64,000 bases of DNA, taken from NCBI RefSeq assembly GCF_024223415.1, contig NZ_CP100500.1; one strand, 5' to 3'. Below are positions 53,455 to 59,610 of this stretch, piece after piece. A program made the position numbers and the translations under genes. Each line of letters begins with the position of its first letter. Position 1 is the stretch's first letter. This DNA is from Escherichia coli (GTDB lineage: Bacteria > Pseudomonadota > Gammaproteobacteria > Enterobacterales > Enterobacteriaceae). The notes under the pieces were generated by a model that was given only the letters and a program-made list of their open reading frames with translations, had not been told where the DNA came from and did not search any database.

Positions 53455-53847
53455 TTATTTCGGACAATCAGCATCCATCTCCAATCGGAGATCCAACACC
53501 ATCAGCATGCCCTCCACTACGCCCTCAGCTTTCTGGAGCATCCTGCCAACCCAACAATCAGATCGCCCATGCTTACGTGCAAGCGCCATAAAAGTCATGC
53601 CGCCGACATAATAGTCCACCAATAAATCATGCAAATCGCTGTTGTTTTTTTTCAGGCGAGCCATACATCCACAAATGATCATCGCGTCATCGTCACAACA
53701 TTGCGGGCGAGATTTTACTTTTGAAGGAATTAATCCCTTAAAACCGGCGGCAATGGACGACCAGGTCACATCTTCATGATTATTAGCCGCCCACGCTCCC
53801 CAACGCTCAAGAACCATCTGAATATCACGCATCAACTTTCTCCACAA
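53455..53847 (-). CDS. late-gene antiterminator Q
   Basis: 130 aa; Cys-rich zinc-binding region; position upstream of lysis genes. Confidence 0.75.
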
Positions 53848-53849
53848 AA

Positions 53850-54845
53850 TCAGGCCAGCACACCAATCGCCAGCGCACGATCGATAAAACGAAATATCAG
53901 CTCCAGCTGGGAGCCATACTTCTCTTCGAATGCCACATTATCCGCATGCAGCTCGTCGTGATGCTTTCTGCACAAAGGCAACACAAAGAGGTCATGCGCT
54001 TTTGTCCCCATTCCACCCTGACCGTGGCCTATCAGGTGGTGGGGATCATCAGCAGGTTTTCCACAACATGCGCACGGCTGCGTCTTAACCCATCGCGTGT
54101 ACTTTTCATTAACCCAGCGGCGACGTTTTGGGCGTAACATAAAAGAGTCCGGCGACTCCGGATCCACTTTCAGCGCCAACACCTTTTTCGCTTTATCCTG
54201 GATGATGCTGGTGGCAGGAACCGAAGGCACCAGGTCACTTTCCCGGGTGACAGACGGCACAACAGGCTTCGGTAATCTCAGTGCCTTACGGGCTGCACTT
54301 TCCGGTAAGGCATCCGCCAGATCATTACGAATCAGCCACCAGCACAGTTCCGGCATTGTCACAACGTGACTGTCATCAAAACCGAGATCCCGACGCACAA
54401 CAGACAACACCCAGCGGGCACAGTTATCCGTTGCCATTGATTCCAGCCGTTCCGTGAACTGATCGCGCAGTTGGTTATCGCAGTGCCAGCACAGACGGAT
54501 TGCGCCCGGCGCGTGTCGCATTGTGGTCATGTTCTCGCTGTGCCAGTCGGAATGAGGCCACTGGCAGCCTTTTTCACGAAGTAACCAGCTTTCAAGACAT
54601 TCCACGCCACCAGCACGACGGATCACTGCCTCATTGCGGAACACGGCCCGAACGGCAGGATCATCCGCCAGCGGTTGTGATGCAGCCGGAACGGCACCAC
54701 TGGCAAAAGATGAATAACGTTCCGGCTCAGGCTCCAGCAGGACACGCCCCTGCATAAACAGGGGCATCAGCTCTGAACCTGGCCTGAACAATACGATCCC
54801 CATACGCGGGGCAATTTCAGGGGTCAGTAGTGCTCTCACGGTCAC
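53850..54845 (-). CDS. DUF968-like nin-region protein with C-terminal zinc/HNH-like motifs
   Basis: 331 aa; C-terminal [14 protein letters not shown]...CRKHHDELH. Confidence 0.6.
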
Positions 54846-54846
54846 C

Positions 54847-55656
54847 TCAATGAACGGTATCGAGCAGCTTTAACAGCTCAGGGAATCGGGATTCGAAGAA
54901 ATGCGGCTGCGTCTCGCGCGGATTTGCGGGACTGGTGATGTTCTTGCCGAACATGCAGCCTTTCGCTGTCAGCGACCAGAATTTTTTGATGTTGTTAATC
55001 GCGGTACGGCTGTATCGTTCGCGTTGTTCAACGATCCCCAGCTTCGCCATCTGGTGATATGCCTGATTAGCCGTCAGGCGGATACCATACTGCTTCAGCA
55101 GTGCACTCAGCGACAGCGTCGGGCGGCTTGAGCCATCAGGCGCGTCAGCAGGTGCATCAATGGCATAGCGCGGTGCCAGATTCGGTAAGCCAACAGCCTC
55201 CTGGAGTTTCTGACAGGCCCCAAGCACAGATGAGTTAGACAGATTTAACTCCCGGCGCATAAAGTCCAGCAGAATCACGCCAGCCTGCATCTTGTCAGCA
55301 GCCTGTCCGGATAACTTTTCCGGCGCGCTGGTTACCATATCGAAAGTACGGATCACCTTCAGATGGAATGACGGGCTGATCCACATTGCATAGGCATACA
55401 CCAGTTCCTTACAGACATACGTTCCCCGTTCATTTCCCCCATGAATCACGCTCACCGGGTCAACACCCAAATTCTGGGTGTTGGTTAATTCATGAACAAG
55501 CTCAACAGTTTGTTGGCTGGAAAGAAACTTTCCTGGCTCCTTGGTTCTGGCATTTGCACCAGATGCTACTGCTGCGCGATGCAGATCGTTCAGGCTGTAA
55601 CGCCCATAAGCATCACGACGAACTTCAATACCATCAATGACCATCAGATTATTCAT
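54847..55656 (-). CDS. KilA-N domain protein
   Basis: 269 aa; N-terminal KilA-N-like region (IDGIEVRRDAYGRYSLNDLHRA). Confidence 0.6.
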   Translation of the reverse strand: MNNLMVIDGIEVRRDAYGRYSLNDLHRAAVASGANARTKEPGKFLSSQQTVELVHELTNTQNLGVDPVSVIHGGNERGTYVCKELVYAYAMWISPSFHLKVIRTFDMVTSAPEKLSGQAADKMQAGVILLDFMRRELNLSNSSVLGACQKLQEAVGLPNLAPRYAIDAPADAPDGSSRPTLSLSALLKQYGIRLTANQAYHQMAKLGIVEQRERYSRTAINNIKKFWSLTAKGCMFGKNITSPANPRETQPHFFESRFPELLKLLDTVH

Positions 55657-55675
55657 ACTTCGTTTCTCCTCTTAA

Positions 55676-56065
55676 TCAGGCAGCTGCACCCGCCGTTTTC
55701 TCGTACTTACTGATAGTGATCTCGACCTTCCCTTCCGGGATAACCGGTCCCCACTCCACCAGCATTCTTTTCACCTGACTGTCGTCTTCCCACACCCCCG
55801 CGTGGGTCAGGGCGTCAAACAGCGCCTTGTTATAGTTGTCCAGATCGCGGATCCTGTTATCCGGAGGAAACAACACGATCTCCACTGAAGCAGGTGCCGA
55901 CGTTGGTTTCGGCAGACGACGTAACTGCTCAACTATTGCTGCGCACGCCGCGCTCTGGAATTTTCGCCCCGCCGCGCTTATCAGGCTCTTACCTGCAAAC
56001 GCCCCTTTGTTAGGGTGTCGCCAGTAAGTGTTCACGCTGGGCGGGAAAGGCAGGATAAGCTTCAT
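55676..56065 (-). CDS. rusA: Holliday junction resolvase RusA
   Basis: 129 aa; RusA signature (PPSVNTYWRH...RDLDNYNKALFDALTHAGVWEDDSQV). Confidence 0.9.
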   Translation of the reverse strand: MKLILPFPPSVNTYWRHPNKGAFAGKSLISAAGRKFQSAACAAIVEQLRRLPKPTSAPASVEIVLFPPDNRIRDLDNYNKALFDALTHAGVWEDDSQVKRMLVEWGPVIPEGKVEITISKYEKTAGAAA

Positions 56066-56388
56066 ACTTTCAGGCCCCTCTCATGTAACCAGTGAGTTGC
56101 ACGCAGCCTGGCGTTTTCCTCACCGGCAAGCAGTGCGCGGATAATCCCGGCTGCCTCGCTGTCGTCGTCCTTCACTGTGGTATGAAGCGTGATACCCCGG
56201 GCCACGCCACGCTTTATCGTGATGACGCCTTTTTTCTCCAGTGCGCGAAGATGCTCCACCGCTGCATTCACCGAACGGTATCCCAGCATGGCTGCCACCT
56301 CCTGATTGGTTGGCGGGAAACCACGTTCTTTCTGATAAGAAATCAGCATATCCAGCACCTGCTGCTGGCATTGAGTTAACGTCGTCAT
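56062..56388 (-). CDS. LexA-type winged-helix DNA-binding protein
   Basis: 108 aa; LexA N-terminal-like HTH (LTQCQQQVLDMLISYQKERGFPPTNQEVAAMLGYRSVNAA); ATGA overlaps with neighbours. Confidence 0.6.
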   Translation of the reverse strand: MTTLTQCQQQVLDMLISYQKERGFPPTNQEVAAMLGYRSVNAAVEHLRALEKKGVITIKRGVARGITLHTTVKDDDSEAAGIIRALLAGEENARLRATHWLHERGLKV

Positions 56389-57038
56389 GCCGCCATCTCC
56401 CTGACCAGTTTTTCTGCCTGCTGGCGAACCTGCGCCAGAAAGGCCTCACCACATGCCTCAAGTTCATCGCGCCCGATGTAGCTGATTGCCGGTCCCTTCC
56501 AGGTCTTGTCGAAAACAGCAATAGCACCAGCGAAGAAAGCGCCTGTCGGCACCTGCTTCTCATCCTTCGGGATAAACCAGGCAGGCAGTTCAAAACCAAT
56601 ACGCCCGCGAATAAAAGCAATATGATCTACATCTTCCGGCCACCACACTTCGCTGGTGGCAGCTTTGATCAGGAAAACATAGCGCCCGCCTTTATCACGC
56701 ATGGCACTGGCATGCTTCATGATGTAACGCATGCCGGTGATGTATTGCCCCTCATGCTGACTGGCGCGGCTGTATGGGGGATTACCAAAGGCAGCACCTT
56801 TAAGCTCCGCAAGGCGTTCTGACCAGTCATGCGCCAGCGCGTTGTCTTCCGCCGTGTAATACGCAGCACATTTGGCGTTATCACCGTCAGTGAACAGATC
56901 CAGAACAAACGGGCCAAACAGGGTGTTAATTCCCCAGAAAATGTTGTCCGGCGTGCGCCACTGATCGCCCACTTCCTTCAGTTCATGGGCTGGTTTGTTC
57001 CGCAGTTCCACCAGCGCCTGGCAATATTTATTACTCAT
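56385..57038 (-). CDS. phage DNA N6-adenine methyltransferase (Dam-like, orphan)
   Basis: Start at internal ATG overlapping upstream stop; NPPY catalytic motif (AAFGNPPYS); no adjacent endonuclease. Confidence 0.75.
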   Translation of the reverse strand: MSNKYCQALVELRNKPAHELKEVGDQWRTPDNIFWGINTLFGPFVLDLFTDGDNAKCAAYYTAEDNALAHDWSERLAELKGAAFGNPPYSRASQHEGQYITGMRYIMKHASAMRDKGGRYVFLIKAATSEVWWPEDVDHIAFIRGRIGFELPAWFIPKDEKQVPTGAFFAGAIAVFDKTWKGPAISYIGRDELEACGEAFLAQVRQQAEKLVREMAA

Positions 57039-57532
57039 TAAGCCCCCACGTAATTCCCTGAGAGATACCACTCTTCACCTGATGCAGCCCGCTTACTGCT
57101 TTTCCGTAAACACCGTTCACGACGCGCCAGAAAATTGTTTCGTTCTGGCAGGGAGTGGCTTTCACGGAATGCCGCCATCCACACCGTTGCAGCACGACGG
57201 TATAAGCCCCTGGACTCCAGTTCTTCCGCCTGGCGGGTCAGGCACAAAATCACCCGCGGGTCGTTAGTGCCGACATAGAAATTGCGCACAGGTCTGGTTT
57301 CACGAACTGGTTGTGGTTCCGGATCCTGCGCTCTCTCAGTCAGGCGCGGGAAATGTCTGTGTGTATCTCCTTCACAACGGTGAGCCACACGCCCACTCTG
57401 ACGTAACTTGCTTGCTGACTGCAGAACGCGCTGCCGTGAGTAACCTGCAAAAGCATCCGCAATGTCTCCGGAAGTACAGCCCGGATGGGCTTCAATGAAT
57501 TTCTGAACGTCATTCAAAAGACTCATGCTCAC
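57038..57532 (-). CDS. hypothetical protein
   Basis: 164 aa; translationally coupled between replication gene and methyltransferase. Confidence 0.5.
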   Translation of the reverse strand: MSMSLLNDVQKFIEAHPGCTSGDIADAFAGYSRQRVLQSASKLRQSGRVAHRCEGDTHRHFPRLTERAQDPEPQPVRETRPVRNFYVGTNDPRVILCLTRQAEELESRGLYRRAATVWMAAFRESHSLPERNNFLARRERCLRKSSKRAASGEEWYLSGNYVGA

Positions 57533-58470
57533 CCCCTGAATCCTGCCGGGATCTGGCTGTAGTCCACATTGTCGTAACTGGCTTTGAAGTACGGGTCTTC
57601 GCGTTTTTCTGTGTACGTGCTGACGGACGGCGATAAGCGCAGGGAAAGCTCATCCCATTTTTCCCGCAGCTTCGACGGGCTGAGCACGTTACGGCACCAG
57701 AACGGATCGCGGCTGACGCGGCTGTAAATCTCGCAGATTTGTTTGTGAGTACGACCATCCTGCACACACATCAGGCGAATTTCGTTTGCCCAGGCTGTCC
57801 AGTTCGGTTCTTTGGGACGAACCACCTCGCCGTCACATTCGGCAGCCTGCTCGTACAGGGCGATGATTTTTTTCCAGAGCCACTGTGCGCAGGTCAAATC
57901 ATCCTGCGTCCCCCACTGGCGTTTTTTAGGGCTGAATACAACCGCATCAGGATGGCGAGTTAAAAAATCCTGTTCAGCCGTCTGCGTGTCCGGTTGCGAA
58001 GAGTCCGGACGAGAAGGTTTTTTATCTGACGGATCATGTTTTGATTTTACTGACGGATCCCCGCCAGATTCTGACGGGTGAAAACCCGCTTTTTTGCCAG
58101 ATTTCGACGCATCAAATTTTGACGGGTCAGATTTTGATGCGTCAGATTTTGACGGGTCAGAATCTGACAGTTGAGAAAATGCCGCTGCCTGAAGCTTCGC
58201 AACGTTAAGCTGATAAACATTCGACGCATTGCGGTTACCCTGGCGACGCGCCTTACGCGTTAACCAGCCTTCTGCTTCCAGCCGTGCGATAGCCGTTCTG
58301 ACGGTACTCATCCCCGCGCCAATCTGGCGGGCAATGGTTTCAATCGATGGCCAGCACACACCTTCGTCATTACTGAAATCAGCCAGGCGGGCCATAATTG
58401 CCACGCTGGATAATTTCATGCCTGACGCTGCGCAACCATCCCATACATAGCCGGTTAATTTAGTGCTCAT
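57529..58470 (-). CDS. phage replication initiator (HTH N-terminal domain, O-like)
   Basis: 313 aa; N-terminal replication-protein HTH; central low-complexity SKSD repeat coinciding with DNA iterons. Confidence 0.75.
   Translation of the reverse strand: MSTKLTGYVWDGCAASGMKLSSVAIMARLADFSNDEGVCWPSIETIARQIGAGMSTVRTAIARLEAEGWLTRKARRQGNRNASNVYQLNVAKLQAAAFSQLSDSDPSKSDASKSDPSKFDASKSGKKAGFHPSESGGDPSVKSKHDPSDKKPSRPDSSQPDTQTAEQDFLTRHPDAVVFSPKKRQWGTQDDLTCAQWLWKKIIALYEQAAECDGEVVRPKEPNWTAWANEIRLMCVQDGRTHKQICEIYSRVSRDPFWCRNVLSPSKLREKWDELSLRLSPSVSTYTEKREDPYFKASYDNVDYSQIPAGFRG
58020..58170 (-). repeat. iteron-like direct repeats (candidate replication origin) inside the replication gene
   Basis: Recurring (C/T)TGACGG(A/G)TC with ~15-bp period, e.g. 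tcagattttgacgggtcagattttgatgcgtcagattttgacgggtcag. Confidence 0.5.
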
Positions 58471-58479
58471 GACCGACCT

Positions 58480-58818
58480 CTATTTCCCTGAATTTACGAC
58501 GAAACTGTTCGAGCGGACTGAAGCACTCATGCTCATAGCCTTCGCGGAGGTAGATAACCCGTTGTGTTTCCGGTTCCCAACGAATGACTCTGACGGGCAC
58601 TCCGTAGTGATCTTTGAACCAGCGGTTAACTTGTCGCAAAGGACTGTCTCCTTCTGCCGGTTGAAATCCCCCACAGCCCACTCTGCAAAGCTGTGGGTTA
58701 CAATTTCCCTGTCACCTGGTACATTCACTGCATAGCAATATTCCACCTTCGCTTTTCCACCCGGTACAGGAAGCGCAATCAGTTGCGAGCGACGGTAGTG
58801 TGTTGTTAAACTGTTCAT
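58480..58818 (-). CDS. hypothetical protein (frame uncertain)
   Basis: 112-aa ORF with ATGA start/stop overlap to upstream gene, ending 10 nt before replication gene start; an alternative 73-aa ORF (58460..58681) overlaps in another frame. Confidence 0.35.
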
Positions 58819-59486
58819 GCGTTAGTTTCTCCACAACCAGAAGCAATCGACGCCACGACGCCCGGAGCTGCACACTCGCGGGCGTCATTACTTTCTGAAA
58901 TGCAAAAGATTTTGTAGACCAGTGCTGCATGCTCCTGCAGCTTCGAAATTGAGAGATACAGCTCGTCGTTAATTGCTGTCTTCTCATGCGGTTCCACTAC
59001 ACCGTCTTCGATTGCTGAACGAATCTGTTTTGAATAACTGCCGATCTGTTCAATGACTTCCAGCAGACGCTGGTTAATATCGGCGTTGTCCACATCCTCG
59101 ACGTCAGGAAGAGACACAAAGACGCCATTTGCAGACTGCGCCACAGCGTCAGCAATGAAGTGAGTTCCACCAGCACGTTGCAAAATCATTGCCCATCCCA
59201 GCGGGAAAATCTGATCGCCATCGGCACGAAGGCGGTTAAATAATGCGTTCTCTGTTACATCCAGCCAGTCAGCTGCTTCAGCGTAACCACCCGGCAACTT
59301 TGCGATAGTTTTTCTGACAGCTTTCACGTACCACTCAGGCTGTTTTTCTACTTTCCAGTGATGCTTACCCACGGTTAGCCTCATCGTTCTGTGGTTTCTG
59401 TTAATCGATTTATCCATTAGATTTTTCATAAAGCTCAGGTTTAAATGGCAACCGTCCGCAAGTTCTATATGCAGCTTCTGCTGCAC
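58815..59486 (-). CDS. putative CII-like early regulatory protein
   Basis: ORF directly downstream of cro-like gene; true start probably an internal Met at ~59384-59429 because the longest ORF overlaps cro. Confidence 0.45.
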
Positions 59487-59610
59487 GTCCTTTTGGAATT
59501 AACTGGCCCGGACGGTTTCGCCACTGATAAACGGCTTCAGTTGTTATGCCGAAAAAAGCAGCAACTTTCTCAATACTGCCGAAGTAGCTTTCGATATCGT
59601 CAGTTGTCAT
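59410..59610 (-). CDS. Cro-like HTH regulator
   Basis: 66 aa; divergent from repressor gene; HTH-like segment (VAAFFGITTEAVYQWRNR). Confidence 0.75.
   Translation of the reverse strand: MTTDDIESYFGSIEKVAAFFGITTEAVYQWRNRPGQLIPKGRAAEAAYRTCGRLPFKPELYEKSNG

Follow-up and report, generated by a model that had tools for sequence, protein, structure and literature searches.

An O-like replication initiator gene lies on the minus strand of a 64,000-nucleotide stretch of Escherichia coli DNA (contig NZ_CP100500.1 of assembly GCF_024223415.1; hereafter the window), and the middle of this gene carries an array of short dyad-symmetric repeats that is a predicted prophage replication origin. The gene, the domains of its product and a candidate unwinding element are placed as follows.

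57529-58470, minus strand: O-like replication initiator gene, 942 nt, 313 aa (open reading frame and phrog_391)
58177-58470, minus strand: region of the N-terminal winged-helix DNA-binding domain, codons 1-98, the presumed iteron reader (Pfam HTH_36, aa 23-70)
57640-57975, minus strand: C-terminal domain, codons 166-277, homologous to the C-terminal (P-binding) domain of lambda O (tblastn/blastp)
57532-57630, minus strand: C-terminal tail ...EDPYFKASYDNVDYSQIPAGFRG, codons 281-313, overlapping a mosaic joint with the next gene (sequence comparison)
58012-58051, no strand: least stable 40-mer of the initiator gene, candidate unwinding element (70% AT, -47.0 kcal/mol)

The protein matches phrog_391, 'replication initiation O-like', over residues 1-313 (E 7.8e-135). 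Its N-terminal part is recognized by Pfam HTH_36 (E 4.2e-11; 42.9 bits with a cutoff of 25), and a PDB sequence search with the initiator returns generic MarR-type winged-helix matches only (E about 0.008). Residues 166-277 are 39% identical to lambda O by tblastn (E 9e-18), and blastp aligns the two proteins over 216 aa with 31% identity (E 3e-26). Phage_rep_O (PF04492), the N-domain family of both lambda O (E 6e-36) and P22 gp18 (E 7e-38), gives no Pfam match in the window initiator. P22 gp18 shows no significant similarity to it by blastp (E 0.46). Neither is there a Pfam match to a Rep_3-type initiator domain, and the RP-C N-terminal domain stays below threshold (17.2 bits; cutoff 24.4).

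By these matches the initiator is placed among the HTH_36-type O-like initiators (phrog_391) and not in the strict lambda O/P family, since its N-domain family differs and its operon has no P, which lambda has. The operon runs in the order cro, ymfL (CII-like), DUF4222, initiator, PerC-like yfdN, Dam, LexA-DNA-binding-like, RusA, KilA-N, DUF968 and Q. The same layout is found in phage SfII, which is viable.

The array spans 58023-58176 on the minus strand, codons 102-150, and consists of seven clear units and a weak one. The unit consensus on the coding (minus) strand is TCTGAC-NN-GTCARA, in which the best-kept core is TGA-N5-TCA. The units are listed with their scores by a position weight matrix, which was built from 53 units of eight relatives.

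58101-58176, minus strand: tandem block of five units at exact 15-bp spacing (weight matrix and Tandem Repeats Finder)
58161-58176, minus strand: tandem-block unit, 15.8 bits
58146-58161, minus strand: tandem-block unit, 25.0 bits
58131-58146, minus strand: tandem-block unit, 22.3 bits
58116-58131, minus strand: tandem-block unit, 25.0 bits
58101-58116, minus strand: tandem-block unit, 18.2 bits
58068-58083, minus strand: isolated iteron TTTCACCCGTCAGAAT, 21.8 bits
58047-58062, minus strand: weak eighth copy GGGGATCCGTCAGTAA, core GATCCGTCAG retained, containing GATC, <5 bits
58023-58038, minus strand: distal iteron CATGATCCGTCAGATA, containing GATC, 14.3 bits

The weight matrix thus finds seven sites of 14-25 bits at 58023-58176, centred at 58030.5, 58075.5, 58108.5, 58123.5, 58138.5, 58153.5 and 58168.5. 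Tandem Repeats Finder reads 58098-58161 as 4.3 copies of a 15-bp unit (81% matches) or, alternatively, as 2.1 copies of a 30-bp unit (88%), and a repeat search reports families spaced by 15, 15 and 15 bp together with remoter copies. Many inverted-repeat pairs occur in the array because each unit is itself palindromic.

The array is singular in the window. The motif TGAYGSRTCA has 4 exact sites in the 64 kb, all at 58027-58159, where 1.48 strand matches are expected window-wide. Allowing one mismatch gives seven sites at 58027-58159, so that four exact and seven one-mismatch sites fall inside 135 bp. Outside the array, the weight matrix gives 4 hits of at least 12 bits, each isolated, compared with a mean of 1.7 hits in shuffled windows, and its scan of the 64-kb window found no second unit cluster.

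The original prediction had described six to eight copies of a (C/T)TGACGG(A/G)TC-containing unit at ~15-bp spacing within the replication gene. The copy number is borne out by the motif, repeat and weight-matrix scans. The spacing holds for the five consecutive units at 58101-58176 but not for the other three, which lie at 33, ~21 and ~24 bp, and the motif fits four copies exactly, whereas the remaining ones are variants. That the repeats encode a repetitive Ser/Lys/Asp linker was also correct, as codons 102-150 of the 313-aa open reading frame yield S-D-x-S-K repeats.

Translated, the array reads SDPSK SDASK SDPSK FDASK ... FHPSES GGDPSVKS KHDPSD, a unit being S-D-(P/A)-S-K, and it makes up a Ser/Asp/Lys/Pro-rich stretch between the N- and C-terminal domains. 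One might take it for a low-complexity peptide linker born from replication slippage and selected, if at all, for protein flexibility, its DNA having no cis function. The inter-domain position agrees with this, all the window units are in frame with 15 bp making five codons, and natural alleles vary in steps of a whole unit, the pattern expected from slippage. Codon usage and its conservation tell otherwise.

Codons 96-153 were recoded synonymously 20,000 times with the local codon usage. After recoding, the mean number of motif matches is 0.23 (exact) and 1.34 (one mismatch), versus 4 and 7 observed (P = 5e-5; 0/20,000). In these codons, serine is written TCA or TCT in 15/16 cases and lysine is AAA in 10/10. 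Codon conservation was then compared between the repeat region and the N-domain in seven relatives, namely Klebsiella phage 1 LV-2017, Citrobacter phiNP, Yersinia YeP3, Escherichia Flotzy, phiP27, Stx2_KH16-043 and the E. coli AR_0077 prophage.

Repeat region, codons 99-152: amino-acid identity 0.43-0.81; same codon at conserved residues 0.77-0.96
N-domain, codons 2-98: amino-acid identity 0.62-0.89; same codon at conserved residues 0.34-0.56

Relative to the N-domain, the array has lower amino-acid identity but far higher codon identity, with Fisher p of 4e-8 to 0.048 for codon retention across the seven relatives. The register in which the repeats of different relatives align is ambiguous, however, so the codon-identity values may be somewhat inflated, which counts against the DNA-level reading. 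Recent horizontal exchange would not produce low amino-acid and high synonymous identity together.

The same contrast appears inside the unit. The two serine wobble bases are among its most conserved positions (T in 49/53 and A in 50/53 units), and the central codon varies freely between relatives (Pro, Ala, Thr, Gly, Gln). The wobble positions are conserved above the first and second positions of that central codon. Moreover, phiP27, KH16-043, RothC and mEp460_4F5 have out-of-frame copies, whose peptides differ. In phiP27 and Stx2_KH16-043, for one, a copy TTTGACCCTTCAGAATCT located 32 bp from its neighbour is in another frame and encodes LTLQNL, not FDPSDS. The diverged E. coli AR_0077 homologue carries GTTGAC..GTCAAC units in place of TCTGAC..GTCAGA; both half-sites have changed together, as expected for a dimer reading the dyad.

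Taking the recoding, the codon retention, the wobble conservation, the other-frame copies and the symmetric half-site change together, the comparisons indicate that the array is selected as DNA, not as peptide. The S-D-x-S-K peptide repeat would be a by-product of the DNA repeat, in-frame units of 15 bp giving rise to the pentapeptides, in a linker that tolerates insertions and deletions. The peptide-linker explanation is hence largely refuted by these sequence comparisons, and we consider it extremely improbable.

DNA-level constraint might also reflect selection on the mRNA or its translation, such as for hairpins or for a codon run that slows ribosomes for folding or for regulation of a downstream gene. 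The coding strand of 58010-58180 indeed folds far better than its shuffles (z = -5.15, folded as single-stranded DNA), and the codon choice is strongly biased to TCA, TCT and AAA. However, a strong fold follows trivially from tandem palindromes, and conservation falls on the dyad within each unit (TGA-N5-TCA) rather than on long-range pairing. No Rfam family reaches its threshold, the best being a microRNA model with 30.7 bits versus 97 that mirrors the palindromes. The out-of-frame copies break any codon-based explanation as well, so selection on the transcript is very unlikely to account for the array.

At the 58101-58176 block, natural alleles have lost one (-1) or gained one, two or three (+1, +2, +3) whole 15-bp units, E. 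coli EC2 being among them, and the existence of such alleles indicates that the unit number is flexible. Point changes among near-identical alleles gather in the unit's central codon (Pro to Thr, Gln or Ala). A viral-contig scan with the N-domain alignment returned only 99-100% identical N-domains, and it informs allele variation, not distant co-variation.

Distant relatives show how the repeats travel. In phiNP, YeP3 and Flotzy, the N-domain and the array are kept with an unrelated C-terminal domain (Phg_2220_C). Phage mEp460_4F5 is the reciprocal case, where the lambda-O-like C-domain is kept with 96% DNA identity up to the distal array edge and the N-domain is unrelated. Its gene holds a 10-mer of its own, GGTCAAARTG, in four occurrences over all three reading frames (gene nt 307-445), and by eye about six 23-24-bp units, CCATC-RGGTCAAARTG, can be made out. 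This repeat set by itself resembles another unannotated origin.

The N-domain family is shared with the Stx phage 24B 'O', SfV orf39, Klebsiella RothC, Pectobacterium ZF40 and Vibrio D75 initiators, whose N-domains are only 38-46% identical to that of the window. Each of them has 3-4 copies of a private motif directly after the domain, 21-24 bp apart, and one RothC copy is out of frame. These motifs (e.g. GGTGGGGCAGG, TRGTGCAGG and TATGCCATC) are unrelated to the window repeats. Thus, by sequence the DNA-binding domain is passed on together with the repeats that follow it and the two change in concert, as is characteristic of an initiator with its cognate iterons. Several of these initiators, unlike that of the window, are followed by a helicase or primase-helicase gene. 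SfV has the operon layout of the window (initiator, PerC-like gene, Dam), and the C-terminal tails of the two initiators are identical.

The array occupies the place where known origins lie. The annotated lambda iterons are codons 117-145 of O and the annotated P22 origin is codons 118-166 of gene 18, to be compared with codons 102-150 here. According to the phage L genome paper (PMC8022706), the lambda, P22 and L initiators each bind their own iterons inside their own coding region, each initiator having its own repeat sequence. The gene 18 of phage L has six copies of an 11-bp repeat. As in the window, the lambda iterons are dyad-symmetric units in the linker-coding middle of an initiator gene, the C-terminal domains are homologous and the gene follows cro and a cII-like gene in the early rightward operon. 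P22 gene 18 likewise has its origin repeats inside the initiator gene at the same relative position.

The lambda origin has four iterons of 18-19 bp about 20-24 bp apart, whereas the window units are shorter and number seven to eight, with five spaced by 15 bp in frame. In P22 and L the adjacent gene 12 codes for a DnaB-type helicase of the phage itself, which the window phage lacks. The iteron plasmid origins (RepA, pi, RepE, TrfA) resemble the model proposed here in having a winged-helix initiator and multiple directly repeated sites, but plasmid iterons are external to the rep gene, with a usual length of about 17-22 bp and a spacing of about 22 bp.

We therefore read the array at 58023-58176, with a probability of roughly 0.8, as the replication origin (iteron set) of an SfII/SfIV/CPS-53-type lambdoid prophage, read by the N-terminal winged-helix domain of the initiator. 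A prophage origin had been predicted from the repeats, and the O-like initiator, the position shared with lambda and P22, the DNA-level selection and the repeats travelling with the N-domain support it computationally. The likeness to lambda that accompanied the prediction is partial. It extends to the inter-domain position and the C-domain, but the N-domain is HTH_36 instead of Phage_rep_O, P is absent and the AT-rich stretch is weaker.

DNA-level conservation shows a cis-acting element, not its function, so the units could be sites for the initiator or another protein that are regulatory rather than initiating, with the strands opened at another place in the phage genome. The candidate roles are copy-number control, titration or handcuffing, autoregulation and a transcription roadblock. 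The weakness of the neighbouring AT-rich stretch and the lack of a loader gene nearby would fit such roles, while the position is that of the annotated lambda and P22 origins and the 64-kb window has no second unit cluster. The cro-proximal early promoter region is about 1.4 kb upstream of the sites, and as these do not lie in a promoter, autoregulation by promoter occlusion is unlikely. In the characterized iteron systems, control sites normally supplement the origin set and do not replace it. We regard a purely regulatory array as unlikely.

If the array is the origin, initiation may proceed in four steps. Rightward early transcription through cro, ymfL (CII-like), DUF4222 and the initiator gene, an order that is observed, would yield the 313-aa protein. 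Its N-terminal winged-helix domain, probably dimeric, would bind the TCTGAC-NN-GTCARA units, as suggested by the observed dyad and co-variation. Seven or eight filled sites might then build an O-some-like complex that strains 58012-58051. Finally, the C-domain, with its observed homology to lambda O, would recruit the host helicase, for which the host DnaB-DnaC complex is the default guess of a partner.

Besides the register ambiguity, several observations weigh against the origin assignment. No P-, DnaC- or DnaB-like gene was found in the early rightward operon (53455-59610), and in the lack of such a homologue the helicase-loading step after initiator binding is unexplained. The candidate element at 58012-58051 adjoins the promoter-distal array end, the right place for unwinding, yet it is weak, at the 94th percentile of the window, and the lambda element is much stronger (78% AT, -43.0 kcal/mol). 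No strong AT-rich unwinding element was found beside the array. The 15-bp centre spacing is also tighter than the 20-24 bp of lambda and other relatives and puts neighbouring dimers on nearly opposite faces, which leaves the architecture of the complex uncertain.

The loader is also absent after the initiator in Klebsiella phage 1 LV-2017 and phiNP, in both of which Dam follows, and in SfV (an unknown orf40, then Dam). In AR_0077 the same C-domain is followed by an 'ATP-binding protein' gene and in lambda by P, so the partners of this domain evidently differ between phages.

The C-terminal tail ...VDYSQIPAGFRG is common, exactly or as variants (..PENSGFRS/T, ..IPEGFRG, ..IPPGFRG), to initiators with three unrelated C-domain types, and the last 76 nt of the initiator gene are 96-97% identical in many otherwise different phages. 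By these comparisons the tail may mark a mosaic joint, dock a host factor, or do both.

A bolder model is a one-gene replication module. It would combine the HTH_36 reader, the iteron-encoded linker, the lambda-O-like domain and the conserved tail common to the three unrelated C-domain types. The chimeric initiator would load the host helicase without a phage P, DnaC or DnaB, its portable ...IPxGFRG tail would dock a host factor, and the unusually tight, head-to-tail 15-bp dyads would build a continuous initiator filament on alternating DNA faces, not a lambda-style wrapped O-some. We hold this model to be doubtful.

The initiator gene has no DnaA boxes, the nearest one-mismatch matches being at 58827 and 59086. 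GATC occurs twice where 0.66 is expected per 200 bp, which is not significant alone. The two sites, at 58032 and 58056, fall one in each promoter-distal iteron copy (GAT CCG TCA). The closer relatives keep GATC as GAT CCG/CCA TCA and phiP27 has GAT CCG CAA. A phage Dam methylase gene (56385-57071) lies two genes downstream of the initiator, and a link between methylation and origin use is possible.

Megablast finds the initiator gene with 98-99% identity in Kati, SfII, SfIV and further phages, and its product is 99% identical to the SfII, SfIV and Kati initiators. Of 5426 complete E. coli genomes, 1943 contain most of a 401-bp query that covers the array, where the annotation reads only 'helix-turn-helix domain-containing protein'. 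In the K-12-type CPS-53, the counterpart is an N-terminally truncated pseudogene between yfdN and yfdP, which we take to be yfdO, and the window initiator is, as judged by sequence comparison, the intact counterpart of this remnant gene. E. coli 5A, with a K-12-type CPS-53, keeps the whole array and the C-domain and has lost the N-terminal part of the initiator, about the first 77 codons as judged from the match boundary at 58237. Its CPS-53 would then hold an origin without its reader.

Two neighbouring regions merit a remark. At 58460-58818, two same-strand open reading frames overlap in different frames, both with family support.

58480-58818, same strand as the 58460-58681 frame: open reading frame of 112 aa (phrog_1170, E 6e-70), annotated in phage records
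58460-58681, same strand as the 58480-58818 frame: open reading frame of 73 aa (Pfam DUF4222, E 3e-19), annotated in RefSeq E. coli records

On the other side, the yfdN-type gene (57038-57532) overlaps the initiator stop codon by 4 nt. Its C-terminal part is PerC-like (Pfam PerC, aa 100-151) and its N-terminal aa 7-71 weakly match a MarR-type regulator PHROG.

In the searchable literature we found no description of iterons for this initiator family and no report of initiator binding or origin activity in it. The SfIV and SfI genome papers and the Stx-phage paper on 'Eru' replication regions make no mention of iterons in the initiator gene, and none of the phage records examined has an origin annotation at the array. 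A study on the Stx 'P27' O-protein concerns a lambda-type O and not phiP27 L17.

In summary, the array most probably works like the lambda ori, on a well-known plan. Its assignment annotates an origin at the sequence level in a type of prophage that is very common in enterobacteria and includes the Shigella serotype-converting SfII and SfIV, and it extends the rule that iterons lie within the initiator gene, so far one of the Phage_rep_O family, to the HTH_36-type initiators. It is also a case of overlapping codes, where a DNA motif dictates a pentapeptide repeat, and analyses taking synonymous sites as neutral would be misled here. The assignment further predicts prophages with a common origin specificity, which may show replication interference, and marks a compact candidate replicon.

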